Of a DNA stretch of 53,928 nt, positions 21,641-53,928 are shown one piece after another (position 1 is the stretch's first letter; the number at the start of each line of letters is the position of its first letter). Made by a program: the position numbers and the translations under genes. The stretch lies in IMG/VR virus record IMGVR_UViG_3300045988_144911, one strand, 5' to 3'. Origin of the DNA: a virus. The notes beneath the pieces are model-generated. The model was not told the DNA's origin. It saw nothing but the letters and a program-made list of their open reading frames with translations, and did not search any database.

Positions 21641-21669
21641 ATTGTAACACGGCAGGGCGCAAATGTCAA
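21641..21669 (-). promoter_or_regulatory. leftward promoter TTGACA-17-TACAAT for the repressor operon
   Basis: Reverse complement of 21641-21669 is TTGACATTTGCGCCCTGCCGTGTTACAAT. The inverted repeat ACAATTG...CAATTGT (21622-21645) overlaps the -10. Confidence 0.65.
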
Positions 21670-21707
21670 CAAAAAAATGAATCAAAATTAAAGAAGGAGG
21701 ATAAAGC

Positions 21708-34347: not shown

Positions 34348-34358
34348 GGAGGAACAAA

Positions 34359-34655: not shown

Positions 34656-34666
34656 GGAGGAACAAA

Positions 34667-34978
34667 ATGAGAAGAAAAACAGAAATTTTTATCTGCGACA
34701 TCTGCGGCATGGAGACGGAAGTCACAGAAGATTTTAAAACACATCGCGTTATGTGTCCGGCAAGAGTTTGTTTTAAGGACGGAAGTCAGATAAAAAACGA
34801 GGCACTGGCAGATATGTGTCCCGACTGCTACAATGCCTATTTTGCACTGTTCGATCAGCATTTCGCCACAATCAAAAAAACTCCATACGGTGATTTCGTT
34901 GTCACCAAAAAATTTAAAACCGAAGACCCATTCACAATAAACGAACCGGAGGAATTCAAAAATGCACCCGACACTTAA
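34667..34978 (+). CDS. hypothetical Cys-containing protein
   Basis: 103 aa; CDICG...CPDC; RBS GAGGAGG. Confidence 0.55.
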   Translation: MRRKTEIFICDICGMETEVTEDFKTHRVMCPARVCFKDGSQIKNEALADMCPDCYNAYFALFDQHFATIKKTPYGDFVVTKKFKTEDPFTINEPEEFKNAPDT

Positions 34979-37491: not shown

Positions 37492-37832
37492 CCCTGAAAA
37501 ACAAAATCCTGAAAGCCCTCGGCAGAGAAGAGGTGCAATGGTACAGAGAATTCGGTGTCCTCGCTCCCTTCTGCCCGTATTGCGGAGAACCCGCCTACGA
37601 CACGCACAGATGCGCTTTCTGCGGAAGAAAATATATCTGGAGAGATTCGCCCCACCCGCCGACAATCGCTGAATACGGCGATTATACAGCGGCTCAGACC
37701 GGCGGCTCCATCCTCATCTTCAAGGGAGACCGGCTGGTATATCATGCATCGTATACAGGCGACCCCATGACGGAGGACGAGCTGAAAGACCATATAGCCT
37801 TTGTCTTCGGGCTGGGTATGACAGATGACTGA
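37488..37832 (+). CDS. zinc-ribbon-containing hypothetical protein
   Basis: CPYCGEPAYDTHRCAFCG. Confidence 0.55.
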   Translation: MTLKNKILKALGREEVQWYREFGVLAPFCPYCGEPAYDTHRCAFCGRKYIWRDSPHPPTIAEYGDYTAAQTGGSILIFKGDRLVYHASYTGDPMTEDELKDHIAFVFGLGMTDD

Positions 37833-38364
37833 GGAGCAAAAGAAGCTCATGGCGGATAACTATCCGCTTGTGTATGCCTTCGCGAACAGGTTTGCCTTCA
37901 ACAGCAGCGAAACCGACGACTACATAAATGCCGGGTATGAAGCCCTGTACTCCGCCGCCGTTACTTATGACCCGGATAACCGCAATGGAAGCAGCTTCTC
38001 AACCTACGCCTCTGCCTGTATCATGAACGGTATGCGCGTCATGTACAAGCACATCATGCGCAGCCGCGTAAAGGCAGGACAGATGAAGGCGAACTACCGG
38101 TTCGGGGACAATCCGGAGGAAGAAGAACTGCCGTATGAAGAACCCGGCTTCGTCCGCGCCGAAAACGAGGACGTGTGCAGTCAGGCTCTGAAAAATCTCA
38201 CGGAAGAACAGAGAAATTACATCGTAAGACGCTATTTTTGCAAAGAAACCGCAAGAAGCATAGCTAAGGAGTGCGGAGTCTCCCCTCAGCGGATGTGCCA
38301 GAAGGAAAAGAAGATTCTTGAGAAAATGCGCAAAAACGTCACCGGAAGGAGATCCCGCTCATGA
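37825..38364 (+). CDS. sigma-70 family RNA polymerase sigma factor (phage-encoded)
   Basis: Region 2-like YINAGYEALYSAAVTYDP...FSTYASACIMNGM and region 4-like LTEEQRNYIVRRYFCKETARSIAKECGVSPQRMCQKEKKILEKMR. Confidence 0.65.
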   Translation: MTEEQKKLMADNYPLVYAFANRFAFNSSETDDYINAGYEALYSAAVTYDPDNRNGSSFSTYASACIMNGMRVMYKHIMRSRVKAGQMKANYRFGDNPEEEELPYEEPGFVRAENEDVCSQALKNLTEEQRNYIVRRYFCKETARSIAKECGVSPQRMCQKEKKILEKMRKNVTGRRSRS

Positions 38365-38895: not shown

Positions 38896-38938
38896 GAAAA
38901 GACCGGCACACCAAAAACGATGTGCCGGTTTTCTTTTT
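38896..38938. terminator. bidirectional rho-independent terminator between the convergent operons
   Basis: 8-bp stem CCGGCACA/TGTGCCGG flanked by an A-run on one side and TTTTCTTTTT on the other. Confidence 0.8.
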
Positions 38939-39146
38939 ACGCCGTAACGAAGGCGAATATCTTATCGGTTATACTGCTCTTCAGCCGGTTGTAGGTCGAC
39001 AGACTGATGTTCAGCGCAAGCGTAGTCTCAATCCCGCTCTTCCCGCGCCGCAGATACGGTATCACCTCAAGCTCACGGTCGGTAAAACCGCATTCCGGGA
39101 TAAGCCGCTCCCACAGCGCGGACGGATAATCGTACCTCACCATCAC
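38937..39146 (-). CDS. small LuxR/GerE-type HTH regulator
   Basis: FTDRELEVIPYLRRGKSGIETTLALNISLSTYNRLKSSITDKI; its start overlaps the giant gene stop. Confidence 0.6.
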   Translation of the reverse strand: MMVRYDYPSALWERLIPECGFTDRELEVIPYLRRGKSGIETTLALNISLSTYNRLKSSITDKIFAFVTA

Positions 39147-42100
39147 GCTTTACCCGCTTTGCGGAGGACTTTGAGTATGTCCGCCTCGGTGATGCCGTAT
39201 TCTCCGTATGTCTTCAGCATCTTTTTGATGTACGCCGCTCTCTTCGATACGTCAATGTAGATAAGCTGTTCCTTCACTTCCTTCTCCATCTTCCTGTGCA
39301 TCTCGTCGTAAACCTCGTCGTCGGTCTTGGAGCCTCCGTCCTCCCTCTCCCGCCGCTTCATTGCGGATTCGATGAAGTCTTCAAACTCCTTGCCCTCAAG
39401 ACTGCTCACGGCGGATACAGAGCTTACAATGCTGTTCACCTTAGCCTTGTACGAACCGGGATTGACCTTCCTCAGCTCATACAGATCGTCCATCAGAGAG
39501 GATTTCATAACGGCATTCTTTATCTTGGTCTCGGTGTACCCGTGATAAATCATGTCCCGCTTGATCTTCACATAGTCGGAATACCTGCCCCGGTCAACAG
39601 CGTCGCGGAGAACATCGTAATAAGCCTCAGTTACCGCCGCCTTGTTCGTAAGCTCAACGTCCTTCCATGCCTTCAGATAGTTGTACTGAGTCATCGGTGA
39701 GACAAGACCGGAGTCAAATATGATTCTGTCAAGACCCGCCTTGAAATCACGGATTACGTTCTTCGCCGACCATCCGAACAGATTGGATGCCGCATTCACA
39801 ATGTCCTGAAGCATTCCGAGATTCGGACGACCGCCGTTCTGCGAGATGAGATACTTGTTTATCAGCCCTCCGAGGTCGGTAAGAGCCGCAAGATCCATTC
39901 TCTCAACAGTCTTTCCGAACGCGCCGGATTCGATCGCCGTCCATACCGTTTCAGCAAGCTGCCATACGGGAGCAAGCCCTCCGGACAGTATGTCCTTTAG
40001 AGCGTTTTCACTGAACGATTTCAGAATATCGTCCCACAGCTCGTCGTCGTCGTCTCTGTCAAGAGTTCCGCGCCAGAGCGATACAAGCGTTGTTATCGCC
40101 GACACCGCGACCGTGTTCGCAACGGAGGAAGCGATAACCTTGACAAGTTTCTTTTTTGCGCCCGGCTTTCCTCTCGCCGCGTCGTTTATCGCGGAGGTCA
40201 GATATGAATACTGCTTCAACGGTTCGTTCTGGAATGCATACAGGAACTTGCTTGCCGTCCCCGCATTCTGAACAGCCATCGACGAATCAAGCGCCGACTG
40301 AACGACCTGTGTCTTTCCGATGACCTCAGAGAATTTGCTGTTGACCGCTTCAAAGTATTCCTTGCTTCCCTTGGTATACTTGTTCTGCGCGTCGATCTCG
40401 GCTTTGCTCATTCTCCATAGCCTCGACCACGTCCACATATCCGCAAACTCTGCGCCCGAATCCATTGCGTCGTTTATTTTTACGAGAAAGTTTTTCGGTT
40501 CGTTGTTATACAGTTCCTCAAAGCTCTTTCTCGTCATGTTCTCCGACGCGCCCCAGTTCTTCAGCTTTGCAACTCCCGAATGCTCAAGCATTTCGTTCAT
40601 CTCCGCTTTGACCTGCGACGGGCTTAAATCCTTGAAGCTGTTCCATGCTTTAATTCCGGCTGACGAGAATTCCGGCAATGCGCGGAATATCGACATCGGC
40701 TGTTTCAGTACGACTGAGATGTTTTTCGCAACCGCCGCCGCCTTGTAGTTCGACAGCAGTTTTTCGGAAAACGCTTCGACTCCCTGACTTGCATATATTT
40801 CGGTTCCGCTCAGATTGTTGATGAGGTTTCTGTAGAATTTATCTGCCTGACCTCCATACTGCCTTATGAGTGTCTGTTTCAGACTTGTCCCGTTTCCAAG
40901 CCTCAGCGCGTACATCTTCTTCGCGTTGTCAAGCTCCTGCGCAAAGGCGTTGTACTGCGCCATGTTAGTCAGATGCCGTCCGATAACGTCGTAAATGTCC
41001 TCGGCAACAAGTGCTTTTCCGGCGCGTCCGGTTCTCTCTTTGGTAAAGCTCAGACCGAGAAGATTCATTTCGTAGTTCGGATTGTCGGCAATCGCGCGGT
41101 AATCGTCTGCCGTCCTCATCGGGAAGTAGTTCTCCGTCGTGTACTTCTTGTAACCGTACATCGCCATTGATACTTCGTTTCCGAGCCGCGCCGCCTCTCC
41201 GTTCAGGATCGCGGATATCCTGTCAGCACACGCTATCTGCGCGTCAGTCAGAGACCCGATGATCTTGTCTGCGTCAGCCTCGTTCAGAACAAGTTTTCTG
41301 CTCTGCTCGTTGAATACGCTCACTGTTCTGAAAATTCTCCAGTTTTTTGTTCTGTTTTCTTTGGTCTGCACGTCAGCCTTTGCTTTGAATTTTCCAATGA
41401 CAAGCCCGCCGTCTTTGTTGAACAGGCATCTTCTCGAATCCTCCTGATTCAGGAGCAGATGTACCGTCATCAGCTGTGAAGGCGTTGCACGGAGTGTGCC
41501 GGTCGAAAGGTTGAGCGTGATCTCCTTGGCTTTCTTTCCGTGCCACCCCTCCGGGATTCCTTCTTTTCCAATCGCGTCAGACATAAGCGACGACAGCAGC
41601 TCGATGTTCGCTCCGAATTTGTCCTGACACTTTCTGAATGTCCGAAGCTGTTCGTCCATTACGTCAGAATCAATGCCGTTGAAAAATCCGTATGCGTCGA
41701 TAGAACCGTAGTGTACCCACTCAAGCCCTTTTCTGAGAGTGTTAAAACCCGTCAACACCCGCGTTTTTCTGTCCCTGTTTTTCGCAAGCCCGATCTCCTT
41801 CTGCGCCTGCCAAGACTTCGCCGCAAGCCCTTCTCTCGGGTCGTAAAGCCGCTTGATCTCCGCCGTCAGGTGCTTCAGCTGATTGAATATTCCGTTAAGC
41901 TCCTCAAGCTGCGCCGAGGAAAGCTCCGTCAGCTTCTTTCCCTGATTGGCTTCCACCCACGCCGCCATTCTCTCAAGCAAGCCGGAGTCAACGATAAGCT
42001 GCTTCTCCTGAACATTCAGGTCGGTCTCGGCAATGTCAAGCCCGTTTTTGCCGTCCTCTGCCGTTGCGTTATTCGCCGCTTCGATGACCCTCAATATCCT

Positions 42101-45100
42101 GTCGTATACACCCTGATTCGCCACGCTCTTTCCTGTCGTGATGTCAACAGCCGCAAGGAATTCCATAAGCGGCTTCCTCATCGCCTCGGTGAAGTGGTTC
42201 TCCGTCGTCGGACCGGAGAGCATCGACGATGCTTCGGTATACCTGCGCAGCACCCTGTTCCGGAGAATCGTCTGTTTCTGCTTCTCGGAACGGTTTTTGA
42301 ACTGCTCCGCATATTTTTCCTTCAGCGAAGTTATGGCTTTTTCTCTCTGCTCCTTGAGCTGCGCTATCCGCTTACGCATGGCATTTATACTAACCGTATT
42401 TTCCCCGTTGTAAAGAAGCTCGGATATCGCTCTGCCGATGGATTTCTTGACGAGCTGTTCTTCGTAGGAAAGCACGTTGCTTTCTCCGATGCCGTTGATA
42501 CGCATATTTCTCGCGAGGTCGGCAATAAGCACAGCCTGTTCCGTACCGTCTGTTATGTTGTCGGGGAAATACTCCGGATAGATTTCCGACAGCTCGGCAT
42601 ATACCTCCGAAAGAGCGCGTCCCTTCTGCTCATTCACAAGCCCGACGATACCGAAAAGCGATTTCCTGAAATCCGACCACGTTTCAAATCCGGCAGCTTT
42701 CGCAACAGAAGCACGGATCTCTGTCGGAACGAAAATCTTCTCCGTGCGGAGCTTCTTTTTTACGTCTCTCGCTTCGTTGTATTCGTCTCTCAGAGGCGAC
42801 ACCCAATCATATATCTCGTTTTCGATGTCTCCGACCATTGCGGCAAGAATGTCCGCGTCGTGCCTGTAGTCCCTTCCGAGAGCTTTGCCGTCGAGACGAT
42901 TCTCATAAGCATACCGGAAAAGCCTTTTAACCGTGTCCAGAAGCTGTTCTCTCGGAATGCGTTCTCCCGATGTCTCCGAAAGATCCGCGATCCGGTTGAG
43001 AAATTCATTGAATTTGTACGGATATCCGCTCTTGTAATATCTCTCTTTCGAGAATTTCTCAAGCACGTTCTTTATGGCTTTGTCTTCTGCTTCTATGGTT
43101 TCCGTTTCACTTTGTGCAGATTTCACAAGAGAATGTCTCTCGTCAGAGGAATCTTTTTCAATGCTCTGCATAGACTGTGTATTGACAACTGAATCATTTT
43201 GTGATACACTGTTGTCAGAGCGTTGAGCACCTGTATTAACGGAATTCTTCTGAATTCCAAGAGGAGGCGACGCTTTTATTTTTTTGTTCGGTCTCAGACC
43301 GATGTTATAAACATAGCTGTCGCCACCGCTTCTACGGACGTTTGCAAGAAGGTCGTAAACTTCGTTGTCTATCTGCACCGTCTTGACGTAATAATCCCAA
43401 AAGCCAATACCATTGTGCGCAGAATTACTCTTGCCCTGCTCCGCGTTGCTCCCGGTATAATCCGCATTCTCAACAAGTTCAAAGATATCTCCGTCCGCGC
43501 CTGCGCGGATTTTTGCTTTCCAACCCTTTTCGGAAGACTGATTGTCTCCGTAAATGTTTTTCTTGACATCCGTATCTTCAAACGTTGCATAGTACGCATG
43601 ACCGTTCCGGATGAATTTCGCGGTTCTTCCACGGTAGTCATTCTTCATGATCTCCTCAAACCGCTTCATTCTTTCCTTGTTCGTGAGATTCTTTATGTCG
43701 TCGCTTGTTTCGTATACCTCAATTCCGTCTTTGTTCGTTCCGGCAAGCGACCACCGTATATCCCGGTTCCCGCTGTCAAACCTCTCGGTAAGCGGAATGA
43801 CGTTGCCGCTGTCGTCGTAGGTTATCGGGTCGGCGGATTTGACCTGTTCGGAACTTCTTATGACGTATGAAAATCCGCGCGAAACCGGCTTTCCGTCAAC
43901 AAGGTCGCCGCCCTCGTCAAGGATTATGCTGTCATAATCAAGCCCGTTTTCGTCAATGAATTCCGCAATGTCATATCCGTCAGTCCAGTCGGGAAGCCCG
44001 GATTCCTGAACCTTGCTCAGCCCGTATTCGGAACGCATTTTATCAAAGATTTCCCGGCATTCCGGTTTCCTTGTGTCAAACGCGTTTCCGAGGTTGGCGT
44101 AAACTTCATAGAGAGAACTATTGTCTCCGGGTTTTGCATAACGGGAGGCATATTTTTTGTTCTCGGTGAAATACGACCAGTCGCGGAACTCGGTAAAGCC
44201 GCCGCCCTTCTTTGAGCCGTGCCAGAACAGTCGGTCATACCCGTTCGCCTTGGCTGCTTCATCCACAAGTCTGCGCTGTTCTTCGGTATCGCCCGATTCC
44301 GCCGCCTCGTCAACAAGCCTCTGCTGTTCCTCGACATTTCCGGATTCAACGGCTTTCATGTACTCGTCGTTCGCACGGGCGAGAGAATATCTGAACCTGT
44401 CAAGCCCTGACTGCTCTCTCACTTCACCGGTCTCGTAAAAGTGTTTTATGTCGTTCACGATCCTTGTGGGGTTGATGTTGCCCTCGTATTCAAGCGTGCC
44501 GACGGTTTTTCCGGTTTCGTCCGAAAGGTCAACAGCAAAATAACCACCGTCCGAAAACTCATTCGCGAATCTGCGGATAGTGGTATATTGCTCTTTTGAC
44601 GGCTCGGTCGAAGCGGAAATGTCAAGTCCGGGAGTCTCCGCCATGATACGGATATTTCCGTCATTCATGAAGCGGACAAGCGCATCGGTTCCCTTGGTAT
44701 TTTCGTATATCGCATCGATGGCTCTGTGGTCTTCACCGCGCGAACCGTAATGCTGCCCCTTCTCGCCCGAGAAATTCAGCATCTTTCCGTTCGGCACGAT
44801 ATATCCCGCGTCGTAGAAATACGGTGTATACCCGAATTCCTTCACCGCCTGTTTGCGGAAATAGTCGGCTTCACTCAGCCCCGATTTTTCGATAGCAGCC
44901 AGTTCTCCGGTGCTTGCTCTGCCCGAACCGCTTTCCGAACTTTTTTCAATGTCGGCTCTCAGCGCATCGCGGCGGTCAACAAGGTCGGCATATCCGGATT
45001 CTTTTCTCCAAGCCTGATATGCTTTCATGCCTTCCGCAATATTGTCGCTGTTTATAGCCTTGCTCAAATCGTCATTTGCTTTTTTGAACGCGTCGGATTT

Positions 45101-48100
45101 CTCAATTTCCCTGATCCGGTTCGTCAGCTCCGTTTCTTCTCTCTGCAGCTCTGCTACGGTGTCAGCGGAGGACGCAAGCGAAAACCTCTTTTCAGGTTTC
45201 GATACTTCGTTCAGTCTTTTTCCGGCTTCCGAACCCGCACCAAGCGCCCCATTCTGGCTATCAGTTCCCCTGTTTCCTCGTCGTAATCCTCCGTTGCGTC
45301 GTTCAGAATCCAGTATTTCGGCACTTTCAGAAACGCCAGCGGTCGGAATTTTTCCGGTCCGGTATATTTCGCCCGGTCTCCTTCCGTTCTCATCCGCATC
45401 AGACAGTCGTCCAGCCTTTCCTCGGTCATTTCGTCTTCTCTTGACCACCTCATCAGCAGATGTCTGTACATCCGTTTGTTCGATATCATAAGAAACTCCC
45501 TCCTTCAGGATCGTATCAATCTGCTTCTTATTATATCCAATTGCTTTGAGGTTGTCAACGATCTTTTTGAAAACCTCGTCATAAGAGAATACTTCGCCGT
45601 TGTTTTCTATCGGCAAAGCCCGACGCTCTTCCTCCGTCATGTCAAGCCGCTGAGATACATTTCTTGCTTCTGTCTCTCCGTAGTTCTGGAAATAATAATA
45701 TTTCGCATAGTCCCCGAGCGAGGCTCCGCCCTTGGCTTCAAGATATCCGATAAGATAGTTCATCTTGTCCTGCGGCTTACTTTCGGCAACGAATTCCGGG
45801 TTGTTCTTTATGAGATCATAGGCGAGGTTCACCGCATAAAACATTCCGGTTTTCGGGCTTGTCCCGCGAACAAACCCCTCTGCCTGCTGAATAGCGTGCT
45901 GCAATTCATGTGAAAGTACATATTTTGCTTTTTCTGAAGTCAGTCCTTTTTTGAGTTCGATGAATTTTCCGTCAGGAGAGTATTTTCCGTTCGTTGCTGG
46001 CGACCCTCCGGTCACAACATCAACCATATGCACCGGAATATCCGCAATCCAAGGATAAGCCGCGAACAGCCTGTCGTGCTTCACATAGTCTCCGACCGTC
46101 TGCGGGTTGTCAACATACCCGTCGGGATTGAACCGCATCTCTTTGTCGCTTATCTCATATCTCCACTTTCCGTCTTTTCCGAGCCACCATCCGGTTCTTT
46201 TTCGGATAGTGTCCATCGAAACTCCGTTCTGATACATCTGATAAGCTCCGCCGAGCGAGTTCAGATCGGCAGTCCGCGAGTTCGCCCCCGCAAGACTGTG
46301 ACGTTTTCCTTCGCCACTCTCAACCGCAGCTTCGCCTTTGACATCCGTCCCGTAAGCCCTCTTAAGCTCCCCGGTCAGCATATCTCTCAGCCTCTCCGCT
46401 GCCTGTCTCTGCTCGACCGCAAGATAGGCATCCCTGCCCCTGATACGCGCAATAAACCTCTCAAGAGCGTTCAGAATCCGTTTGATGATCCCCGGCTTGT
46501 TCCGGTTCATCGCCCAGAAGATGTTCTCCCCGGCTTTGCTTGAATGCCCCATGTCGTCAACCGCCGCGCCGAACATATCCGCCATGATCTCTTCAAATAT
46601 GTACGCATCGTTGACCACTTTCTCGGCAGAAGCGCGTCTCTGCTCCTCCGTGCCTTTCATCTCAAGCATCGCCTGTTCGGTGTACGCGTCAACGTATCTG
46701 CGCCAGTTCTTCTCTTTCTGCGCGTCCTCCGACCTCCACGAACGGTCGTCCGGATGCTCAAGCCGTCCCTTAAGGTCGAATGCGTCATACTGCGTCCCGG
46801 CAACAGCCTTTATGAAATCCAAGGTTAGCCCAGAATCCGCGTGCGCTATCTCATGCGCGATCGTCTGCGTCACCGCACGGTCGAACGAAACACTTTTCCC
46901 GGAATTGAGAACAAACCCGTTTCCGTCCGCCGCCAGTTCAAGTTTTACAACGTTTTCGACCCCGTTCCAGTCTCGGCTGACTTTTATCGTGTTTGTGCTT
47001 TTGTCAAAGTATGCGCCGGACTTCATTCCGTCTGCCGTCTCAACATTGTCAACGACCTCGATGTTGACTCCCATCTTCTTCAGAGGCTTGCGGAGTGAAT
47101 CAACAATTTTGTCAACCTCTCCGGCGCGTACAAGTCTGCCCATCTCGCGGAAATCGTCCATTGCTTTTGCAAGTGAATTGTTCCGGGAAGCGGCTTCTTT
47201 CAGTTCTCCGATCCGCTGTGCTTTTTCCTCTGCCGTAATGGAATCGGAGCTTTCGATGTTCTTGATTTCCTGCTCGATTCCGGCATTCTCGTTTCTGAAA
47301 AATGCGTCCTGTTCCGCTTTGCTGTTGAGGTTTGCAAGTGCAGAAGCGTTCTCTGCCGAATACCTCTCGTCCTGATACGCGCTGAAATCCGCCCTGACCC
47401 GCTTTTTAGCCGTTTCCTGCGTTGTTTTTGTCTCTGATGAGTTAGTACCGCCCTCGCCGGAAACGTTCGCTGCAGGCGATTCTGTGAACCCTGATAGGTC
47501 ACCGCCGTTTATGACATAATTCCTCACCGTCTCAAGAAACCTGTGCTGACGGTTCGTCGCATCAATGGTAGCCTTGGTCTCCGCGCTCTTTACCTTCTCG
47601 CTGTTGCGCAGACGGCTGTTCTCGGCGCGGTTCGCCTGTATCGCCTGATCGATGATGACCGCCGCGTTCTTGTGTCCCTCGGTTGCCGTTTTGCCGCTCT
47701 CAATCGCACTCTGCGCGGCTTTCAGCGTGTCGGATGAGTTCTTTATAATGTCAAGCGTCTGCCGCACGGAGGCGCGTTTCTGCGACACCGTAGTTCCGCC
47801 GATTCTCAGTCCGGTCAGCCGCTCAAACGCCGCGAGCGTACCCCTGTCCTTGAGAATGTTCCGTTCAATGTCCTTGTTCGACAGCTCCCCCATGGAAAGA
47901 AGACTGAACATCTTTTCGTCATTTCCGGAGGTAACGTCAACCTTGGTCTCCTGCGCGCTCTTCGCTTTTTCAAGAACCGCCTGTATAGAATCCGCATTTA
48001 TTTTTCCGGAGGAGATAAGATTCTTTATCTGATTCAGATTGTCAATTGAAGCATCAATGTTCGCGGAAATTTCGGAAGCCTGATTCTTACCATACTTTTT

Positions 48101-50575
48101 TTTGGCATAGGATTTGAGATATTCATACCAGTCCTTGCCCTCAGAGATTATCTCAGCCGCCGCCTTTGCATCTCCTTTTTTCAGAGCATCGGAAGCATCG
48201 TTGAGTATAGAATAATCGATTTTCTTTGCGTTGTTGTAAAGCCCCTCTGCATTGCCGGGATCGATTGCGGAAATCTGTGCGTCGGCGTTTGCTTTCCCGG
48301 TTCTGTATGCGCCGGCGATCGTCAGCGACGAGCTTGCAAGACCGGAGATAAACCCGCCGGCTCCAGCCCAGCCGATGTCAGCCGCAACCTCTCCCGCAGC
48401 CTTTTTAACAGCCTCTTCGCGGGTCATGCCGTCTCTTACATACTCCGTGACCTTTCTGTCGTAATCCGAATCGTAGCCTTTGCTTATTTTGTCAATGACC
48501 GTGTTTGCAATCTCGGTGAACACTTCTTCGGAAGCCTCAACCCCGTTCTGCGTGAGGATCATCTTTATTGCTTTTTTCGGTATGGTCGGCTTTGACTCAA
48601 CAATGTTCCTGATGCTCGACAGGTTCTCTATCGACAGATACTCAAAGGTCGCCTCTGCAATTCCGGACAGAAGCGATTCCCAGTATATCTGGCTGCTCGA
48701 TGCGCCGGATTCATAAAGCTCCGCCGCCTTCGATGCCGCCGCAGAACCGCCCATCGATATAGTGTACAGCTTTCCGAGAGTCGCCATTCCGAATGCCGAG
48801 TCGACTCCGGACATAAGCGACTGATATACCTGTGACATGACGTTCTGCCCGAACATCTCCCAGCCGATGCTGTCCTCGATGTCCTTTGCAACAAGCCCTC
48901 TCGCCTCGCGTCCCGCAACAGAAAACAGATTGTAATTCTCGTAGGGATTATATCCTTTGCCTTCCCAATCGCCTTTTGAAGCAAGGTCGAGTCTCTGCCC
49001 TATTTCACCAATGGTCGAAATCCCGCCTCCCAAGACATTCAGCGGAACGGATGCCGCAGAATAAGCAATGTCTCCCGCCGTTTTGTTTAATCCCTCGTTG
49101 CTGTCGGCAATAAGATATCCGAGAGCCGCACCACCAAGCCCGCCGAAGGTGTTTGCAAGAGCCGCCGCGCTGACGTTCCCGAATATTTTGCTGTTTTTCA
49201 GATCCCGGATAAACTGCTTGACCTCTTCGGTATTGCGGTAATCAAGAGTGACATCCATATCTTCAAGATATTTGTCCGCCGCCTCTTTTCCCTGCGTACC
49301 GAGCAGATAATAATATACCCGCTTTTCATCATCAGTCATAAGTCCGTAATGATATCCGAGCGCATCCCGTTTTGCGGCGCCGAGATCGGAAGACCATACA
49401 GTTGTACTGTCCGTCTTGTTACCGTATTTGTCGTTGGTCAGATCCTCATAGAATCTCAGCTTGTTTACGATGCTTGGCGCGTCCTGACCTTTGGTATCTT
49501 CTGCAGTAAGTATCGGATCACTCGCTTTTCGCTTGTTGTATGCTTCCGCACGTTTTTGTGTCGCGGCATTTTCATAATTGAGATAATCCTCAAACGTCGG
49601 ATTCTCTACCGCCTTGCCGGATATAACTCCCTGAAGAAAATCCTCGTTGTTCGCAAGATTCCGGTATCCCGCCGCTGTTCTCATCCTGTCAACGTTGTTC
49701 AGCGCAAAAGACTCAAGCTGATATTCCTGCGTCAGCCAGTTCAGAACCTCGTCGTCGGTCATGCCGTCAAGACCGTACTGTTGCTTTGCCTCATTTATCG
49801 CCGTTCTGTTGTATGCCTTTTTTCCGCTCCTTGCGTTTGATACGAGCTGTCCTGTCGAAAGAGAGTCACTCGATGTGTTGATTCTGTCAAGATACCCCTT
49901 CAGCTCGGCAAGGTTTTTCTTCCCCGCCTCCGCGTCATAATCGTTGACGATATAGTCCTCGTCACGCCTTTTATCGGTGCGGTAATTGAAGTCAGCCTCG
50001 TTTTTGTACTGCCCATAATACGCCCCGAGGTCGCCGAAAAACTTAATCTCACTGCCATAAGCCTTTATCTGCTCCCCGACCGCCTTCTTCTGATCATCGC
50101 TCCCGCCGTATGTGTTGTAATACTCCGCAAGCGCATTCAGCCTGTCGCGCATCTTTTTGACCTGATCCGACGAGCCGTTTATCGTCTCCTGAGAATAGTA
50201 CTTCGACGGGTCGAACTGCGTGCCGTAGGTCGATGAAATGCTCTTCGCAAGAGCCTCCATGTCGTCATTCAGCGTCTCGGCTCCGACCTTGTTCCATGCC
50301 GCATTCCTCGCGTCGCGTTTCGTGATGAAATCACTTGCATTCTTCGCCTCTCCCGATGCAAGCGCGGCTTTGTATTGATCCCATAAAGAGCCGCCCTTGT
50401 AGTTCGGAATTCTGTTCTGCTTTGCCGCCGCCGCAAGACGTTCCTCGCGATTCTTCTTTATCGCCTCCTCGCGCTTCCTCTCGTCCTCGCGTCTCTTCTT
50501 AACGTCGGAAACCGCTCTGTCTGCAAGGCTTTGCGTGATCTTATAAAGGTCTTCGGTTGATATCCTGTTTCCCAT
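39143..50575 (-). CDS. giant polyvalent multi-domain protein (3,810 aa)
   Basis: Uninterrupted 11,433-nt ORF with RBS AAGGAGA. Contains HEIAH and HELQH metallopeptidase-type motifs, an H-Y-E ART signature and a Gly-rich hydrophobic segment. Confidence 0.9.
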   Translation of the reverse strand: MGNRISTEDLYKITQSLADRAVSDVKKRREDERKREEAIKKNREERLAAAAKQNRIPNYKGGSLWDQYKAALASGEAKNASDFITKRDARNAAWNKVGAETLNDDMEALAKSISSTYGTQFDPSKYYSQETINGSSDQVKKMRDRLNALAEYYNTYGGSDDQKKAVGEQIKAYGSEIKFFGDLGAYYGQYKNEADFNYRTDKRRDEDYIVNDYDAEAGKKNLAELKGYLDRINTSSDSLSTGQLVSNARSGKKAYNRTAINEAKQQYGLDGMTDDEVLNWLTQEYQLESFALNNVDRMRTAAGYRNLANNEDFLQGVISGKAVENPTFEDYLNYENAATQKRAEAYNKRKASDPILTAEDTKGQDAPSIVNKLRFYEDLTNDKYGNKTDSTTVWSSDLGAAKRDALGYHYGLMTDDEKRVYYYLLGTQGKEAADKYLEDMDVTLDYRNTEEVKQFIRDLKNSKIFGNVSAAALANTFGGLGGAALGYLIADSNEGLNKTAGDIAYSAASVPLNVLGGGISTIGEIGQRLDLASKGDWEGKGYNPYENYNLFSVAGREARGLVAKDIEDSIGWEMFGQNVMSQVYQSLMSGVDSAFGMATLGKLYTISMGGSAAASKAAELYESGASSSQIYWESLLSGIAEATFEYLSIENLSSIRNIVESKPTIPKKAIKMILTQNGVEASEEVFTEIANTVIDKISKGYDSDYDRKVTEYVRDGMTREEAVKKAAGEVAADIGWAGAGGFISGLASSSLTIAGAYRTGKANADAQISAIDPGNAEGLYNNAKKIDYSILNDASDALKKGDAKAAAEIISEGKDWYEYLKSYAKKKYGKNQASEISANIDASIDNLNQIKNLISSGKINADSIQAVLEKAKSAQETKVDVTSGNDEKMFSLLSMGELSNKDIERNILKDRGTLAAFERLTGLRIGGTTVSQKRASVRQTLDIIKNSSDTLKAAQSAIESGKTATEGHKNAAVIIDQAIQANRAENSRLRNSEKVKSAETKATIDATNRQHRFLETVRNYVINGGDLSGFTESPAANVSGEGGTNSSETKTTQETAKKRVRADFSAYQDERYSAENASALANLNSKAEQDAFFRNENAGIEQEIKNIESSDSITAEEKAQRIGELKEAASRNNSLAKAMDDFREMGRLVRAGEVDKIVDSLRKPLKKMGVNIEVVDNVETADGMKSGAYFDKSTNTIKVSRDWNGVENVVKLELAADGNGFVLNSGKSVSFDRAVTQTIAHEIAHADSGLTLDFIKAVAGTQYDAFDLKGRLEHPDDRSWRSEDAQKEKNWRRYVDAYTEQAMLEMKGTEEQRRASAEKVVNDAYIFEEIMADMFGAAVDDMGHSSKAGENIFWAMNRNKPGIIKRILNALERFIARIRGRDAYLAVEQRQAAERLRDMLTGELKRAYGTDVKGEAAVESGEGKRHSLAGANSRTADLNSLGGAYQMYQNGVSMDTIRKRTGWWLGKDGKWRYEISDKEMRFNPDGYVDNPQTVGDYVKHDRLFAAYPWIADIPVHMVDVVTGGSPATNGKYSPDGKFIELKKGLTSEKAKYVLSHELQHAIQQAEGFVRGTSPKTGMFYAVNLAYDLIKNNPEFVAESKPQDKMNYLIGYLEAKGGASLGDYAKYYYFQNYGETEARNVSQRLDMTEEERRALPIENNGEVFSYDEVFKKIVDNLKAIGYNKKQIDTILKEGVSYDIEQTDVQTSADEVVKRRRNDRGKAGRLSDADENGRRPGEIYRTGKIPTAGVSESAEILDSERRNGGLRRGNRGTDSQNGALGAGSEAGKRLNEVSKPEKRFSLASSADTVAELQREETELTNRIREIEKSDAFKKANDDLSKAINSDNIAEGMKAYQAWRKESGYADLVDRRDALRADIEKSSESGSGRASTGELAAIEKSGLSEADYFRKQAVKEFGYTPYFYDAGYIVPNGKMLNFSGEKGQHYGSRGEDHRAIDAIYENTKGTDALVRFMNDGNIRIMAETPGLDISASTEPSKEQYTTIRRFANEFSDGGYFAVDLSDETGKTVGTLEYEGNINPTRIVNDIKHFYETGEVREQSGLDRFRYSLARANDEYMKAVESGNVEEQQRLVDEAAESGDTEEQRRLVDEAAKANGYDRLFWHGSKKGGGFTEFRDWSYFTENKKYASRYAKPGDNSSLYEVYANLGNAFDTRKPECREIFDKMRSEYGLSKVQESGLPDWTDGYDIAEFIDENGLDYDSIILDEGGDLVDGKPVSRGFSYVIRSSEQVKSADPITYDDSGNVIPLTERFDSGNRDIRWSLAGTNKDGIEVYETSDDIKNLTNKERMKRFEEIMKNDYRGRTAKFIRNGHAYYATFEDTDVKKNIYGDNQSSEKGWKAKIRAGADGDIFELVENADYTGSNAEQGKSNSAHNGIGFWDYYVKTVQIDNEVYDLLANVRRSGGDSYVYNIGLRPNKKIKASPPLGIQKNSVNTGAQRSDNSVSQNDSVVNTQSMQSIEKDSSDERHSLVKSAQSETETIEAEDKAIKNVLEKFSKERYYKSGYPYKFNEFLNRIADLSETSGERIPREQLLDTVKRLFRYAYENRLDGKALGRDYRHDADILAAMVGDIENEIYDWVSPLRDEYNEARDVKKKLRTEKIFVPTEIRASVAKAAGFETWSDFRKSLFGIVGLVNEQKGRALSEVYAELSEIYPEYFPDNITDGTEQAVLIADLARNMRINGIGESNVLSYEEQLVKKSIGRAISELLYNGENTVSINAMRKRIAQLKEQREKAITSLKEKYAEQFKNRSEKQKQTILRNRVLRRYTEASSMLSGPTTENHFTEAMRKPLMEFLAAVDITTGKSVANQGVYDRILRVIEAANNATAEDGKNGLDIAETDLNVQEKQLIVDSGLLERMAAWVEANQGKKLTELSSAQLEELNGIFNQLKHLTAEIKRLYDPREGLAAKSWQAQKEIGLAKNRDRKTRVLTGFNTLRKGLEWVHYGSIDAYGFFNGIDSDVMDEQLRTFRKCQDKFGANIELLSSLMSDAIGKEGIPEGWHGKKAKEITLNLSTGTLRATPSQLMTVHLLLNQEDSRRCLFNKDGGLVIGKFKAKADVQTKENRTKNWRIFRTVSVFNEQSRKLVLNEADADKIIGSLTDAQIACADRISAILNGEAARLGNEVSMAMYGYKKYTTENYFPMRTADDYRAIADNPNYEMNLLGLSFTKERTGRAGKALVAEDIYDVIGRHLTNMAQYNAFAQELDNAKKMYALRLGNGTSLKQTLIRQYGGQADKFYRNLINNLSGTEIYASQGVEAFSEKLLSNYKAAAVAKNISVVLKQPMSIFRALPEFSSAGIKAWNSFKDLSPSQVKAEMNEMLEHSGVAKLKNWGASENMTRKSFEELYNNEPKNFLVKINDAMDSGAEFADMWTWSRLWRMSKAEIDAQNKYTKGSKEYFEAVNSKFSEVIGKTQVVQSALDSSMAVQNAGTASKFLYAFQNEPLKQYSYLTSAINDAARGKPGAKKKLVKVIASSVANTVAVSAITTLVSLWRGTLDRDDDDELWDDILKSFSENALKDILSGGLAPVWQLAETVWTAIESGAFGKTVERMDLAALTDLGGLINKYLISQNGGRPNLGMLQDIVNAASNLFGWSAKNVIRDFKAGLDRIIFDSGLVSPMTQYNYLKAWKDVELTNKAAVTEAYYDVLRDAVDRGRYSDYVKIKRDMIYHGYTETKIKNAVMKSSLMDDLYELRKVNPGSYKAKVNSIVSSVSAVSSLEGKEFEDFIESAMKRREREDGGSKTDDEVYDEMHRKMEKEVKEQLIYIDVSKRAAYIKKMLKTYGEYGITEADILKVLRKAGKA
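43680..44250 (-). other. ADP-ribosyltransferase-like module (H-Y-E type) within the giant protein
   Basis: LFWHGS (His codon at 44221-44219), WSYFTENKKYASRYA, SLYEVYANL; downstream EQVKSADPITYDDSGNVIPLTERFD. Confidence 0.55.
45655..46375 (-). other. second HExxH module within the giant protein
   Basis: GWWLGKDGKWRYEISD ... VLSHELQHAIQQAEGF (HELQH at 45896-45910) ... YGETEARNVSQR. Confidence 0.5.
46585..47128 (-). other. zincin-like metallopeptidase module within the giant protein
   Basis: VTQTIAHEIAHADSG (HEIAH at 46841-46855) with downstream FEEIMADMFG as a possible third ligand. Confidence 0.55.
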
Positions 50576-50586
50576 GTATTCTCCTT

Positions 50587-50627
50587 AAAAAATAAAACAA
50601 GGCACGTCATCGGGGGATAACGTGCCT
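50587..50627 (-). terminator. rho-independent terminator/attenuator directly upstream of the giant gene
   Basis: Minus-strand stem AGGCACGT/ACGTGCCT followed by TTGTTTTATTTTTT, then AAGGAGA and the ATG. Confidence 0.7.
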
Positions 50628-50667: not shown

Positions 50668-51930
50668 TCACACCGGATCGATGTCGGCAAGCCAGCGCGT
50701 CGTGTAATCTCCGGTCAGAAGACCCTTTGCGTATTTCGTCGCGGATATACCGAGCGCTTCCGCCTCTTTGCGCAGCTTATTCTGAATGTCCGTCGGCAGA
50801 TCGGAAATCTCTCCGTTCTCTCCGACCTTTTCTTTGAACATCATGAGCGGGTAAAACGAACCGTATTTGCTCTTCGTGTCGGAAGATTCCGTCTCTCCGC
50901 TGTAGTACGTGTTCCCGCCTGCACCGCTTATGATATCCGTATACCTCTTGACAATGTCCTCAATATCCGGATAGCTTTGACCGTACTGGTTCACGATCAT
51001 GGCTCCCGCGCTGAGCAGTCCCTGTTCTCCGCCTTTGTCATACGCGGTCTGCAATGCATTGCCTATGTTGCCGCTGACCTCGGGAGTAATCGTCGCCGTC
51101 CCCGTGTTGTACTTCTCGGCAAGAAGCGACGGCAGAACTTTCTGAACCATGTTGTTGTACGCCACCGTTGCTGTCGTGTCGTCGGAATACCGGTTCTTTG
51201 CCGCATCCATCGCCGACTGCGCATTCGATGTGGATATCCCGAGCAGCTGCTGAGTGTTGACTCCCATCTTCTCAAGCGCGCCGAGCATATTCGAAAAACG
51301 CTGATTGCTTGCGTCGTTCACCGCTCTCACTCCGGAATTGAGGTATGACAGCTTCTGCCGCCTTGCGTTTGCTTCCGCGTAGGAATCGATGTTTCCGCCG
51401 TTCGAGGAAGCGGCATCGGCATATTCCGCATTCGCCGCATTGTCTCCGCCAAGCCCGTATTGCGACATGATTGCCTTGCCCCAGTCGGTCTCAAGCGGAT
51501 TCTGATTCTTGTACGATTCCACAAGGTCGGTGTAATACTTTTCATGCGCGTCAGCCTTGTTCAGCCCGTACCTGTTGTTCGCAAGAAGCTGATTGCTTAT
51601 CTTTGTCCAGTAGCCGTCATCATAGTTCCCGGCACTGCTTATCGCCTTGATGTAGTCATCATACGGCGACTTGACAACAGTCGTTGCGGTCGTATCGCCC
51701 GGTAACGAATCGTTTCCCGCTCCGCCGCCTGTCCCGGAAGTGTCGGCGGGAATTCTCCCCATCTGAGAGTCTTTCTCCCTCTGCTTGTTCATCTGATCCT
51801 GACGCCACTGATTGACATCGTTGACGTTTCCCGTGTTTCCGAACTTTCCGGAACTTGCTCCGTGAGCAGTATTGTTCTTTTTCTCTCCGCTCATGTCGGA
51901 CATATGCTTTATATAGCTTTTTATCGCCAT
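50668..51930 (-). CDS. 420-aa G/N/S/A-rich protein of unknown function (candidate virion-internal protein)
   Basis: Abuts the endolysin stop with no gap; no TM segment and no recognised motif. Confidence 0.6.
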   Translation of the reverse strand: MAIKSYIKHMSDMSGEKKNNTAHGASSGKFGNTGNVNDVNQWRQDQMNKQREKDSQMGRIPADTSGTGGGAGNDSLPGDTTATTVVKSPYDDYIKAISSAGNYDDGYWTKISNQLLANNRYGLNKADAHEKYYTDLVESYKNQNPLETDWGKAIMSQYGLGGDNAANAEYADAASSNGGNIDSYAEANARRQKLSYLNSGVRAVNDASNQRFSNMLGALEKMGVNTQQLLGISTSNAQSAMDAAKNRYSDDTTATVAYNNMVQKVLPSLLAEKYNTGTATITPEVSGNIGNALQTAYDKGGEQGLLSAGAMIVNQYGQSYPDIEDIVKRYTDIISGAGGNTYYSGETESSDTKSKYGSFYPLMMFKEKVGENGEISDLPTDIQNKLRKEAEALGISATKYAKGLLTGDYTTRWLADIDPV

Positions 51931-52740
51931 TCACTTTACCTCGCTCCCGTTGCACCACCCGTTAGCGGTACACCCGCCGAAGCCCTTCAGCAGATACGGA
52001 TGCCGCGATTTTCCGGGTCGGTATATCCTCATGACCTTTGCTTTTCCCGGCTTGCACCCGAAGCCGATAAGCGCGTTTGCGTTCCGGTAATGCTTTTTTC
52101 CGGTAAAGATTACGGTGTCGCCGACGGATATCACCTTTGAGGGATGAAGAAGCCCGTCCACGTCGCGCCGGAAGTCGTCCATCGTCAGCCCGAACTTCTT
52201 CAGCCAATGGTCGCAGTCGGCGTGATTGTTTGCATAGCCCTTTTTGTACGCCTCTCTGTGCGATACGATGACCGAGGCTTCCCATCCCCATCTGCGGCAG
52301 ATGTCGGCACACAGAGAAACGGCAGCGTTGTAGCAAGCCTTGAAGTACGTCTCGTCCTTCAGCCCGTCCTCGCATATCTCAAACTGTATGTGCGGATACG
52401 GAGGATAGTTGTAAGAGCCTTTCTTGCCGTTACCCACGCCCCACGCGCATATCTCCTCCGGAAGCAGATGAAGTATGCCGACCGTGCCGTCAGCAAGCCG
52501 TCCGATCATATAGTGAACCGCCTTGTTCACGTTCGGTCTGTTCCAGTGATTGCCGTACCTGTTCCTCCCGATCTTTGCGATTATCTCCGCGCGGTCGGGA
52601 TCGTCGTCAGACGGCTGACAGTACCTCGCCACCGAGGTCTGGTTAACTCCGGTTGAGTGTACCACGATCCCGACCGGCTCACACTCCTGATATACCGCAT
52701 AGCACCTTGACTGTGTGTGGAGGCATTCGGTTATATTCAT
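51931..52740 (-). CDS. endolysin, N-acetylmuramoyl-L-alanine amidase (Amidase_2/PGRP type) with C-terminal binding domain
   Basis: GIVVHSTG ... AVHYMIG ... AWGVGNG ... HIQFEICE ... VSHREAY...HADCDHW parallels the PlyG-type amidase layout. Confidence 0.8.
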   Translation of the reverse strand: MNITECLHTQSRCYAVYQECEPVGIVVHSTGVNQTSVARYCQPSDDDPDRAEIIAKIGRNRYGNHWNRPNVNKAVHYMIGRLADGTVGILHLLPEEICAWGVGNGKKGSYNYPPYPHIQFEICEDGLKDETYFKACYNAAVSLCADICRRWGWEASVIVSHREAYKKGYANNHADCDHWLKKFGLTMDDFRRDVDGLLHPSKVISVGDTVIFTGKKHYRNANALIGFGCKPGKAKVMRIYRPGKSRHPYLLKGFGGCTANGWCNGSEVK

Positions 52741-53033
52741 TATCTGCCCTCCTCACCGTCGTCGGCACCGGTCTTGTCCCCGGAAAGCTGCTTGTATATC
52801 TGATGCGCTCCCGTCGCCGCAAGCCCGGATACTATGCCCACAGCGACCGCCGTGATGACGTCCCCGGCAGGGAAGTCCGGCATTATGTACATTCCCAGTA
52901 CGCCAAGCCCTCCTCCGAGTATGCCGCATATCACCGGAAGCCACTTGTTGTCAAGCGGTGTCGCCTTGATAAGCTGCGCGGCAAGATAGCAAATGACCGT
53001 TATCGCCGCAATTCCCGTTATTCCGAAATCCAT
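52740..53033 (-). CDS. holin (phage_holin_4_1 / LL-H-like)
   Basis: 97 aa, three hydrophobic segments, charged C-terminus, GIVSGLAATGAHQIYKQL motif; sits immediately upstream of the endolysin. Confidence 0.8.
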   Translation of the reverse strand: MDFGITGIAAITVICYLAAQLIKATPLDNKWLPVICGILGGGLGVLGMYIMPDFPAGDVITAVAVGIVSGLAATGAHQIYKQLSGDKTGADDGEEGR

Positions 53034-53551: not shown

Positions 53552-53928
53552 TCAGGTTAAAAAATCGTTTGTTTCAAGAAGTATCTTGTATACCCGGCGC
53601 AGGTTCTCTATCGCAAGCACCGCCCGGTTGTTCTTGTAGTCGGGATGAGCCTTGCAATACCTCTCATACTCGTCTATCTCGACAAGCACATCGTCAAATT
53701 CTTCCTTGGTATGCCGGAGTTTGCGCAAGACCTCCCCGTTGAAGCGGAGTATCTGCCTCCGATGCTCGTCCGCCGCTCTCATGTCGTCGGCAAGTATATG
53801 CCCTTCAAGCCGCTCCTGCGTCTCAAGAAGCGACGTTTTTATGTCTTTAAGGTCTTTAATCACGTCTGTATTGAACGCCCTCCCTATGGCTTTTATTATC
53901 GCCGTCCAAGGGTTGACCCTGATAGGCG
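53552..53928 (-). CDS. C-terminal part of the wrap-around membrane protein (the true start is at 189 in the repeated copy)
   Basis: The frame stays open to the window end. The ORF-track start at 53863 is an internal GTG (Val). Conserved RILRFNGEVLRKLRHTKEEFDDVLVEIDEYERYC segment. Confidence 0.7.
   Translation of the reverse strand, partial: PIRVNPWTAIIKAIGRAFNTDVIKDLKDIKTSLLETQERLEGHILADDMRAADEHRRQILRFNGEVLRKLRHTKEEFDDVLVEIDEYERYCKAHPDYKNNRAVLAIENLRRVYKILLETNDFLT
53810..53928. repeat. 119-bp direct terminal repeat, identical to 1..119
   Basis: Exact identity with the start of the window. Confidence 0.95.

Follow-up and report, generated by a model that had tools for sequence, protein, structure and literature searches.

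The giant gene and its reading frame

The window considered here is a stretch of 53,928 nucleotides (nt) held in IMG/VR as the virus record IMGVR_UViG_3300045988_144911, and its subject is a giant gene on the minus strand (Table 1). The gene encodes a polyvalent protein in which constant ends enclose a variable middle of exchangeable cassettes, and our preferred reading, which we hold with moderate confidence, is that of a capsid-packaged ejection and effector polyprotein. The ends of the window repeat each other exactly over 119 nt (1-119 = 53810-53928), and therefore it represents a circular assembly of 53,809 bp, 21.2% of which falls to the giant open reading frame (ORF). An earlier inspection of the DNA made without database searches, referred to below as the sequence-only reading, had described a single uninterrupted ORF of about one fifth of the genome located 3′ of the lysis cassette. 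Both points are borne out: 3,810 codons are free of interruption, and holin, amidase endolysin and an ORF of 420 amino acids (aa) all lie upstream of the gene.

The identical 3,810-aa protein was called on three contigs of about 53.7 kb, and two diverged homologues, P0121 (4,189 aa) and P0122 (4,104 aa), are 61-71% identical to it and collinear with it at both ends. A megablast of 25 kb of the window against GenBank phages gave zero matches, and tblastn with two parts of the giant protein found as its sole match one unannotated 4.8-kb faecal contig.

Table 1. Features of the window and of the giant protein, with the matching chromosomal loci in the last two lines.
Feature	Position (nt)	Strand	Residues (aa)	Remarks
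Giant ORF	39143..50575	minus		3,810 codons plus stop, uninterrupted (ORF listing and translation)
AAGGAG ribosome-binding site	50581..50586	minus		5 nt before the giant-gene ATG; read from sequence
Terminator-like hairpin with T-run	50600..50627	minus		in the 92-nt gap between 420-aa ORF and giant gene; 25 nt upstream of the start
Charged helical N-terminal region	49166..50575	minus	1-470	31-35% D/E/K/R; poorly conserved
Gly/Ala/Ser-rich module	48266..49168	minus	470-770	conserved, alignment A3; no PDB, N4 or MuF match
Zincin-like module 1 (putative)	46553..47035	minus	1181-1341	HEIAH at aa 1241-1245; YIFEEIMADMFG at aa 1325-1336
Junction 1, RHSL	46292..46303	minus	1425-1428	
LPD23, PF18838	46127..46297	minus	1427-1483	E 9.4e-21, 73.8 bits (cutoff 27)
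Zincin-like module 2 (putative)	45596..46126	minus	1484-1660	HELQH at aa 1556-1560; GETEARN near aa 1633-1639
Junction 2, RFSL	45176..45187	minus	1797-1800	
Cassette 'E', domain of unknown function	44393..45175	minus	1801-2061	FGYTPYFYDAGYIVPNGKMLNFSGEKGQHYGSRGEDHRAI...; no Pfam match; recurs as a unit in relatives
Junction 3, RYSL	44381..44392	minus	2062-2065	
ART-PolyVal, PF18760	43829..44245	minus	2111-2249	E 7.7e-10, 40.1 bits (cutoff 31.2)
Junction 4, RWSL	43745..43756	minus	2274-2277	
LPD3-like cassette, PF18798	43328..43612	minus	2322-2416	E 9.5e-4, 19.8 bits, under the cutoff of 27
Junction 5, RHSL	43127..43138	minus	2480-2483	
C module, family-defining	39476..42898	minus	2560-3700	about 1,100 aa, mostly alpha-helical with one small beta domain
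Strongly hydrophobic helix	40082..40147	minus	3477-3498	LVKVIASSVANTVAVSAITTLV; sole such helix: only 19-residue Kyte-Doolittle window > 1.4 in the protein
68-aa ORF	after giant gene	minus		
Terminator-like hairpin, 12-pair stem with T-run	38902..38929	minus		after the 68-aa ORF; ends the minus-strand late block
terS	13503-14033	minus		
terL	12157-13515	minus		
Portal	9631-11661	minus		
Scaffold-like ORF	between portal and major capsid protein	minus		332 aa
Major capsid protein	7320-8570	minus		
SU10-type adaptor	6312-6911	minus		
phrog_511 'internal virion protein' homologue	4909-6348	minus		479 aa
Collagen-like fibres, then several small ORFs	after phrog_511 gene	minus		
Holin	52740-53033	minus		
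Amidase endolysin	51931-52740	minus		
420-aa ORF	50668..51930	minus		directly upstream of the giant gene; no family match
Tyrosine integrase	17117-18172			
Repressor	18160-18588			
Sigma-70 family factor (Sigma70_r2/r4)	37825-38364	plus		end of the early block, converging on the giant gene
Chromosomal locus L136	10001-14941			contig of about 656 kb; matches window 41906-46574
Chromosomal locus L171	10001-16111			contig of about 656 kb; matches window 41906-46574

Polyvalent domains in the middle of the protein

The complete protein and ten segments that overlap along it were scanned with Pfam, the curated gathering cutoffs serving as thresholds. Because LPD23 and ART-PolyVal pass these cutoffs in one and the same chain, the giant protein is established as one of the phage-type polyvalent proteins described by Iyer, Burroughs, Anand, de Souza and Aravind, whose study is also the source of both Pfam families (Iyer et al. 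2017, PMC5512222). This confirms the assignment made in the sequence-only reading, including its H-Y-E signature of an ADP-ribosyltransferase (ART), for which PF18760 now scores above its cutoff. The signature residues H2119-G-S, Y2135 and E2243 sit in the motifs LFWHGS, SYFTEN and SSEQ at aa 2116-2244 (43844-44230) and are conserved in 33 (H2119), 24 (Y2135) and 23 (E2243) of 36 homologues.

Two modules, each bearing an HExxH and further on an E..A motif, appear zincin-like, as judged by their conserved motifs. In the first, TIAHEIAHA occupies aa 1238-1246 (46838-46864) and EEIMAD aa 1328-1333; HEIAH and the downstream YxxEEIxAD are kept in a few homologues sharing the region (P0121, P0122 and P0127) and are degenerate in P0124, and Pfam found nothing significant in this module. 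In the second, SHELQHAIQQAEGF spans aa 1555-1568 (45872-45913), with GWWLGKDGKWRYEI ahead of the module at aa 1462-1475, the H/E/H residues are kept in 28-29 of 29 aligned homologues, and the DUF6782 metallopeptidase profile matches with 20.7 bits, under its cutoff of 27. Of the two metallopeptidase modules that had been proposed, the conserved HExxH motifs stand, but PF18818 (MPTase-PolyVal) is not matched and DUF6782 stays below threshold. The profile searches suggested at the time for MuF and PF18818 detected neither family, MuF not even at E <= 1, and RNA polymerase families were likewise without a Pfam match in the giant protein. All quoted motifs are present, within a few bases of where they had been placed. 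An NCBIfam search with the giant protein returned nothing, a PDB sequence search with the whole chain nothing significant, and no signal peptide or receptor-binding domain was recognised in the Pfam scans.

Conserved modules and the family they define

The giant protein belongs to a very large unnamed family that is defined by its C-terminal module (C module), which matches PHROG 22978 (function unknown) at E 2e-78 and for which no Pfam entry was found. With aa 2890-3810 as query and clusters formed at 50% identity, an exhaustive HMMER search yielded 3,242 cluster representatives at E <= 1e-3 and 1,843 at E <= 1e-30. Nearly all members are giant (median 2,727 aa, maximum 4,685), with the match at their extreme C-terminus. 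When the whole protein was mapped onto 152 family representatives, conservation was found in two stretches only, aa 2600-3700 in essentially all of them and aa 550-770 in about one third, and the middle varied; in distant members the intervening polyvalent domains are LPD23 with an ART, or MuF_C (PBECR) with DUF6782. A Gly-zipper module of about 300 aa and the helical C module of about 1,100 aa are thus the constant parts of the family.

The sequence-only reading had recognised no motif in the approximately 1,250 C-terminal residues. They are indeed without a Pfam family, but they are also the most conserved part of the protein. Invariant residues of the C module include QQP..R (aa 3291-3298), K3339, D3379/W3383/W3387, TQVV (aa 3422-3425) and F..EP (aa 3448-3452). 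KKK stands before its hydrophobic helix and DRDDDDE after it; the family consensus keeps a hydrophobic helix followed by a run of RDDDDD. A moderately confident AlphaFold model of the module built from 24 sequences reached a predicted local distance difference test score (pLDDT) of 71.7 and a predicted template modelling score (pTM) of 0.63. Foldseek of this model against the PDB gave nothing under E 0.39, and the C-module profile found no relative among PDB sequences. In BFVD, matches down to E 2e-42 are C-terminal fragments of giant proteins of uncultured phages, named as MuF C-terminal domain, nuclease or PolyVal ADP-ribosyltransferase and, in one Tenacibaculum phage, as 'structural protein'. 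The 'structural protein' of Tenacibaculum phage Gundel_1 led no further in the literature, and neither did a paper on the podovirus AP-20-A.

At the other end, the charged N-terminus noted earlier is recovered as a helical region. The Gly/Ala/Ser-rich segment behind it was described correctly in composition and position, but it is not strongly hydrophobic (Kyte-Doolittle <= 1.4). GGLGGAALGYL lies at aa 478-488 and GWAGAGGFISGLASSSLTIAG at aa 735-755 (48311-48373); motifs of the module across the family are FLYxTGMSxADS, GVEASEExxTEIAN and GLAGxGGALSGGxMGG, the last of which is glycine-zipper-like. No PDB relatives of the Gly-module profile were found.

Junction motif and cassette exchange

The cassettes of the middle region meet at a short motif. 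R-[FHWY]-S-L occurs five times in the protein, against 0.12 occurrences expected by residue shuffling (maximum 2 in 2,000 shuffles); all five copies lie at cassette boundaries, and the break points between relatives coincide with them. The residues preceding the motif are rich in Gly, Ser, Asp and Asn, and a relaxed form is 3.2-fold enriched in 131 distant members (219 observed, 69 expected). In a poor AlphaFold model of the middle region, all four junctions covered fall into low-confidence linkers, which lends weak support.

Swapping of modules between relatives, which the sequence-only reading had proposed to look for, is directly visible in block-wise similarity and in the order of cassettes. 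P0121 has an extra cassette after aa 2061, aa 1436-1796 are replaced in P0122, and the giant ORF of a close 53-kb relative, IMGVR_UViG_3300045988_139242 (L008), shares only aa 2466-3810, at 72% protein identity and up to 88% in the best segment; its upstream part instead encodes a PBECR5 nuclease, a GNAT acetyltransferase, MuF_C and another ART. After cutting at the motif and clustering of the pieces, 122 related proteins resolved into combinatorial strings between constant ends, such as D-C-E-A-B (35 proteins), D-C-E-A-A-B (13), D-C-E-F-B and D-C-H-A-J-B, with the window protein reading O-C-E-A-A-M. R-[FHWY]-S-L may mark where the built-in zincins process the chain, serve as a joint for recombination, or do both.

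A chromosomal counterpart of the cassettes

A very common protein of 1,646 aa (P0015, with more than 100 variants) is 70% identical to residues 1342-2890 of the giant protein, and long stretches are near-identical. At the nucleotide level, the middle of the giant ORF and the chromosomal gene share 83-92% identity with abrupt edges (window 41906-46574). The chromosomal cassette gene is complete and occupies a fixed locus flanked by a DUF6514 ORF and a DUF1846 gene, 3′ of YD-shell/RHS fragments accompanied by small ORFs. The cassette set at this locus differs between two strains (1,646 aa versus 2,036 aa), and the proteins are devoid of the phage head and of most of the C module. The locus has the look of a polymorphic reservoir whose cassettes the phage shares, and the near-identical cassettes with their abrupt edges point to recent exchange between the phage and its probable host lineage. 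Stop-codon recoding or a split gene, considered as the cause of the many homologues that start at M1342, was dropped, as these are complete chromosomal genes at the fixed locus.

The same likeness could in principle betray an assembly chimera or a decaying fusion, in which a phage contig was misjoined via the chromosomal cassette gene: the middle 1,550 aa of the ORF match the abundant 1,646-aa proteins, and the homology edges are abrupt at aa 1334 and aa 2890. Yet the same giant protein occurs on three contigs, P0121 and P0122 keep the same order of head, cassettes and tail, the 11.4 kb contain no frame break, and the contig closes into a circle through a clean k-mer overlap. The first two observations rule out the assembly chimera that the sequence-only reading had reckoned with, and we consider the probability of this explanation negligible.

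The phage and the position of the gene

Read along the minus strand across the artificial contig ends, the late genes lead from terS through the head and fibre genes and the lysis genes to the giant gene and the 68-aa ORF, and the plus strand carries replication genes, methylases and the sigma factor. A tyrosine integrase and a repressor are present, and the phage is therefore temperate; altogether, it is a temperate podovirus of (gut) Clostridia. The proposed late placement holds: the gene shares the late strand with the virion genes, and the phage has a packaging system of the portal-terminase kind. Tube, sheath, chaperone and tape-measure families were absent from the structural-gene ORFs scanned, for which precomputed Pfam covers the adaptor onward. 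As the structural module is of the podovirus type, the absence of a tape measure and tail tube is expected, and the context that the sequence-only reading had found unusual in this respect becomes ordinary in view of the module from terS to the fibres. Pfam on the neighbouring structural ORFs and on the 420-aa ORF gave zero matches, and PDB sequence searches with the phrog_511 protein and the adaptor nothing significant. The sigma factor and SU10-type adaptor recall phiEco32/SU10-type podoviruses, which likewise use their own sigma factor.

Scanning IMG/VR with the C-module profile retrieved 390 viral contigs of 20-58 kb, and in the 80 that were kept the module sits in an ORF of about 2,200-3,660 aa. 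In 49 of these 80, a homologue of the window's phrog_511 protein is encoded on the same strand, 1.5-3 kb upstream of the giant gene. The 41-kb contigs L025 and L137 show the order terL, portal, scaffold-like protein, major capsid protein, fibres, phrog_511, a 325-aa minor head/tail protein, a 410-aa LysM/transglycosylase-like protein, the giant gene (2,919 aa), endolysin and serine integrase. Sixteen phrog_511-centred loci repeat the series terL, portal, scaffold, major capsid protein, fibre, phrog_511, about 325 aa, about 425 aa and giant gene; the phrog_511 homologue is present in all 16, and a tape-measure-sized ORF is absent in 14. Because the layouts of the IMG/VR contigs repeat it, a giant gene that closes the structural module is the rule for this lineage of temperate podoviruses, whose reference genomes with a C module all belong to the Clostridia (Oscillospiraceae, Lachnospiraceae, Ruminococcaceae and Christensenellales).

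In most relatives the giant gene is located inside the structural module, ahead of the fibre and lysin genes. The window phage and its nearest relatives differ in that fibres and lysis genes precede the giant gene, with the homologous 420-aa ORF directly before it. A homologue of this ORF adjoins the giant gene in the nearer relatives, and a protein of about 425 aa, which in L025 has a LysM/transglycosylase-like N-terminus, occupies the position in distant ones. Mid-sized ORFs upstream of the giant gene are conserved throughout L137-L167: phrog_511 (about 530 aa), the 'minor head/tail' protein (about 325 aa), and proteins of about 315 aa and about 425 aa. By analogy with T7 gp14-16 or N4 gp51-52, they are candidates for a co-ejected set.

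This neighbourhood would also suit a protein that is mainly a structural ejection or tail-extension protein, like T7 gp16 or P22 gp16/gp20, which forms a trans-envelope channel and degrades the wall with its zincins, the ART and LPD domains being inactive or secondary. The synteny with phrog_511 and two or three mid-sized ORFs resembles T7 gp14-15-16, a LysM/transglycosylase-like protein of about 410 aa stands directly upstream in relatives, a hydrophobic helix and a glycine zipper are conserved in the family, and a conduit role was proposed for gp47 of phage phi24B by the authors who studied it. Against this stand the conservation of the ART catalytic residues and of both HExxH motifs and the lack of fold likeness to T7 gp15/gp16 or other solved ejection proteins. 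Moreover, the cassettes turn over rapidly between close relatives while the ends stay constant, which fits a payload in an arms race and not a scaffold. We consider a mainly structural protein unlikely.

Comparison with known systems

Giant polyvalent genes at the end of a podovirus structural module are already known, and the window protein is a well-characterised further example. Like the proteins collected by Iyer and colleagues, it unites putative zincin-like peptidases, an ART and LPD domains in one giant chain encoded among the late genes of a portal-terminase phage; unlike them, it has no MuF, N4-RNAP, DarA/DarB or PF18818 module. A zincin-like MPTase is the commonest hub domain of polyvalent proteins and not an obligatory one (PMC5512222), and head-packaged ARTs have been predicted computationally both there and in the 2022 NAD-ADPr survey. 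Term searches of PMC5512222 found no description of a Gly-zipper module, C module or R-[FHWY]-S-L junction, and none of the three is matched in Pfam. What goes beyond the literature are these two uncharacterised conserved modules, the junction motif with its cassette combinatorics, and a cassette pool shared with an RHS-adjacent chromosomal locus.

Published counterparts close in host and layout are the prophages φ1 and φ4 of Clostridium clostridioforme LM41, temperate predicted podoviruses of gut Clostridia in which an LPD3-like ORF of 8 kb, read as a polyvalent protein, takes up almost 20% of the genome at its 3′ end (PMC11318856). Compared by this published description, their ORF matches that of L025 and L137 in size and layout, and the window gene is larger (11.4 kb) and placed after the lysis genes.

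In the Stx phage phi24B, also a temperate podovirus, gp47 (vb_24B_48) is encoded by the last late gene, measures 2,811 aa, has LPD and MuF-C domains and two HExxH motifs, and is preceded by a 421-aa ORF; mass spectrometry found it to be abundant in virions, it is absent from the cryo-EM model, and the authors propose a capsid-packaged ejection protein with a conduit role (bioRxiv 10.64898/2026.04.10.717836). Unlike the window protein, gp47 belongs to a phage of a Gram-negative host and is devoid of the R[FHWY]SL motif, and we regard the relation between the two as a functional analogy. Homology of the window's 420-aa ORF to the 421-aa ORF of phi24B was rejected for want of any similarity.

The podovirus N4, a coliphage, carries in its virions gp50 (vRNAP), a protein of about 3,500 aa whose gene comes last in the late operon, after two ejection-protein genes; the beads-on-a-string domains of gp50 have been proposed to permit passage through a channel of about 35 Å (PMC13434306). 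Like the window protein it has an HExxH module, but it contains an RNA polymerase, whereas the window protein has no such domain and the phage encodes a sigma factor instead. In layout, and by analogy probably also in function, the giant protein is like N4 gp50 and phi24B gp47, although homology to either could not be demonstrated. Its size, taken as unusual by the sequence-only reading, and its position at the end of an operon are the rule in this lineage and have been published for LM41 φ1/φ4, phi24B gp47 and N4 gp50 alike.

Two other classes of phage protein were considered and rejected: a MuF-anchored head cargo of the SPP1 gp7/Mu gp30 type (PF04233), as hhalign of alignments A1 and A3 against SPP1 gp7 gave a probability of <1%, and a tape measure protein, there being no long-tail gene families among the structural-gene ORFs scanned and a podovirus-type structural module. 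Outside phages, polymorphic toxin/RHS systems and the self-processing multi-effector toxins of the MARTX type likewise combine constant delivery parts with exchangeable effectors and short conserved junctions between them. RHS, HINT and CPD domains were not found in the giant protein by Pfam, and delivery by the virion would here replace a secretion system.

Proposed function

As a capsid-packaged ejection and effector polyprotein, the giant protein would be expressed late together with the virion proteins from a strong AAGGAG site. The hairpin upstream of the gene, which is missing in relatives whose two genes abut (e.g. L076), may act as an attenuator that keeps the dose low. A few copies would be packed into the capsid through one or both conserved end modules and would exit via the portal and short tail, ahead of the DNA or with it, as a loosely joined string of domains. 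The Gly-zipper (aa 470-770) and C modules would serve encapsidation and the forming or anchoring of a conduit across the Gram-positive envelope, where the glycine zipper and the single hydrophobic helix with its subsequent poly-Asp run might anchor or form the channel. The exchangeable cassettes (LPD23 with zincin, the unknown domain, ART and LPD3-like) would constitute the payload and hit host targets early; more speculatively, the zincin modules might cut the R-[FHWY]-S-L junctions and so free the cassettes. We infer packaging, ejection, membrane insertion and early effector action by analogy, because the gene is syntenic with virion genes, the architecture joins constant ends to a variable payload, and N4 gp50, phi24B gp47 and the predicted head-packaged ARTs provide precedents.

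Several points weigh against this proposal. The C and Gly modules were rejected as counterparts of phi24B gp47 parts, with neither sequence nor profile similarity, and of the terminal domains of N4 gp50, for which BLASTP, hhalign and hmmsearch were non-significant. A T7-type core or ejection protein (gp14-gp15-gp16) found no PDB sequence match and no Foldseek match below E 0.39, leaving a positional analogy. Since the end modules are unlike N4 gp50, phi24B gp47, the T7 core and the PDB, it is their position and conservation that speak for a structural role, just as it is the analogy with phi24B gp47 that suggests the presence of C-module proteins in virions. A known capsid-targeting domain, MuF included, was not found in the giant protein. 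The Gly-rich stretch contains no 19-residue Kyte-Doolittle window above 1.4 and is thus weakly hydrophobic, the zincin assignments lie under Pfam thresholds, and the AlphaFold model of aa 1180-2300 (pLDDT 46.9) is too poor to confirm a zincin or ART fold, Foldseek being uninformative. The terminator-like hairpin directly upstream of the gene bears on its presumed co-transcription with the late operon. Finally, the chromosomal gene has neither of the end modules and no phage context, which implies that the cassettes can function, or at least persist, outside a virion.

Some of these points suit a late protein that is not packaged at all, namely a cytoplasmic multi-enzyme or a toxin released at lysis. 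Such a protein would be made late owing to its place beside the lysis genes, would help the lysogen population, and could turn its ART against other bacteria or the host. ART exotoxins carried by phages are known as a class; the giant gene lies 3′ of holin and endolysin, a terminator-like hairpin separates it from the upstream gene, and a chromosomal gene that varies between strains holds nearly the same cassettes beside RHS/YD-shell fragments of polymorphic toxins. However, most relatives carry the gene within the structural module, before the fibre and lysin genes, a soluble toxin would have no use for about 1,400 conserved non-enzymatic residues, neither a signal peptide nor a receptor-binding domain was recognised, and the phi24B counterpart by architecture is virion-borne. 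A non-packaged protein therefore seems distinctly improbable to us.

A bolder extension of the ejection and effector polyprotein, possible but on balance doubtful, is that the junctions are both cleavage sites of the protein's own zincins and joints for recombinational exchange of cassettes with the chromosomal gene, and that the C module is a new ejectosome device of Gram-positive podoviruses. If true, the giant chain would be a polyprotein that processes itself and sets free four or five separate effectors in the newly infected cell, and phage and bacterium would have one common pool of shuffling effector modules.

Abundant as they are, the short-tailed phages of Gram-positive gut anaerobes are almost unstudied, and the family is a concrete candidate for the passage of DNA and protein across a thick wall. 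A single protein takes up about 20% of each genome in this family, which comprises thousands of 50%-identity clusters as well as hundreds of viral contigs and prophages across the Clostridia. Its cassette region represents a natural catalogue of candidate early anti-host effectors; the junction motif can be used to parse such proteins automatically and makes the self-processing and ejectosome hypotheses testable. The window protein, unsurprising as it may be to specialists, offers a clean and complete reference example.

Other features of the genome

Two regions of the window have a low G+C content (0.42-0.48 versus about 0.53 elsewhere), at 1-2000 and 18000-22000. The former covers the distal fibre gene (488-2047) and the latter adjoins integrase and repressor; they are likely a recently acquired receptor-binding gene and an attP/moron region, respectively. 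Another fibre gene (2831-4039, minus strand, collagen-like tail fibre) contains three tandem 78-nt repeats, 64-81% identical, at 2937-3170. On the plus strand, tandem 12-nt repeats, some of them 18 nt, at 25198-25419 lie within an ORF (25179-25841) whose Gly/Tyr/Asp/Ser-rich low-complexity product (GYGSGYG..DYDYDKGDGYG) has no PHROG match. Finally, a 62-nt intergenic element occurs at 34304-34365 and again at 34612-34673, the copies being 308 nt apart and 77% identical. The element includes a ribosome-binding site and start codon (…TTCTGAGGAGGAACAAAATGA) ahead of two small early ORFs, and may constitute a duplicated regulatory or translation-initiation region.

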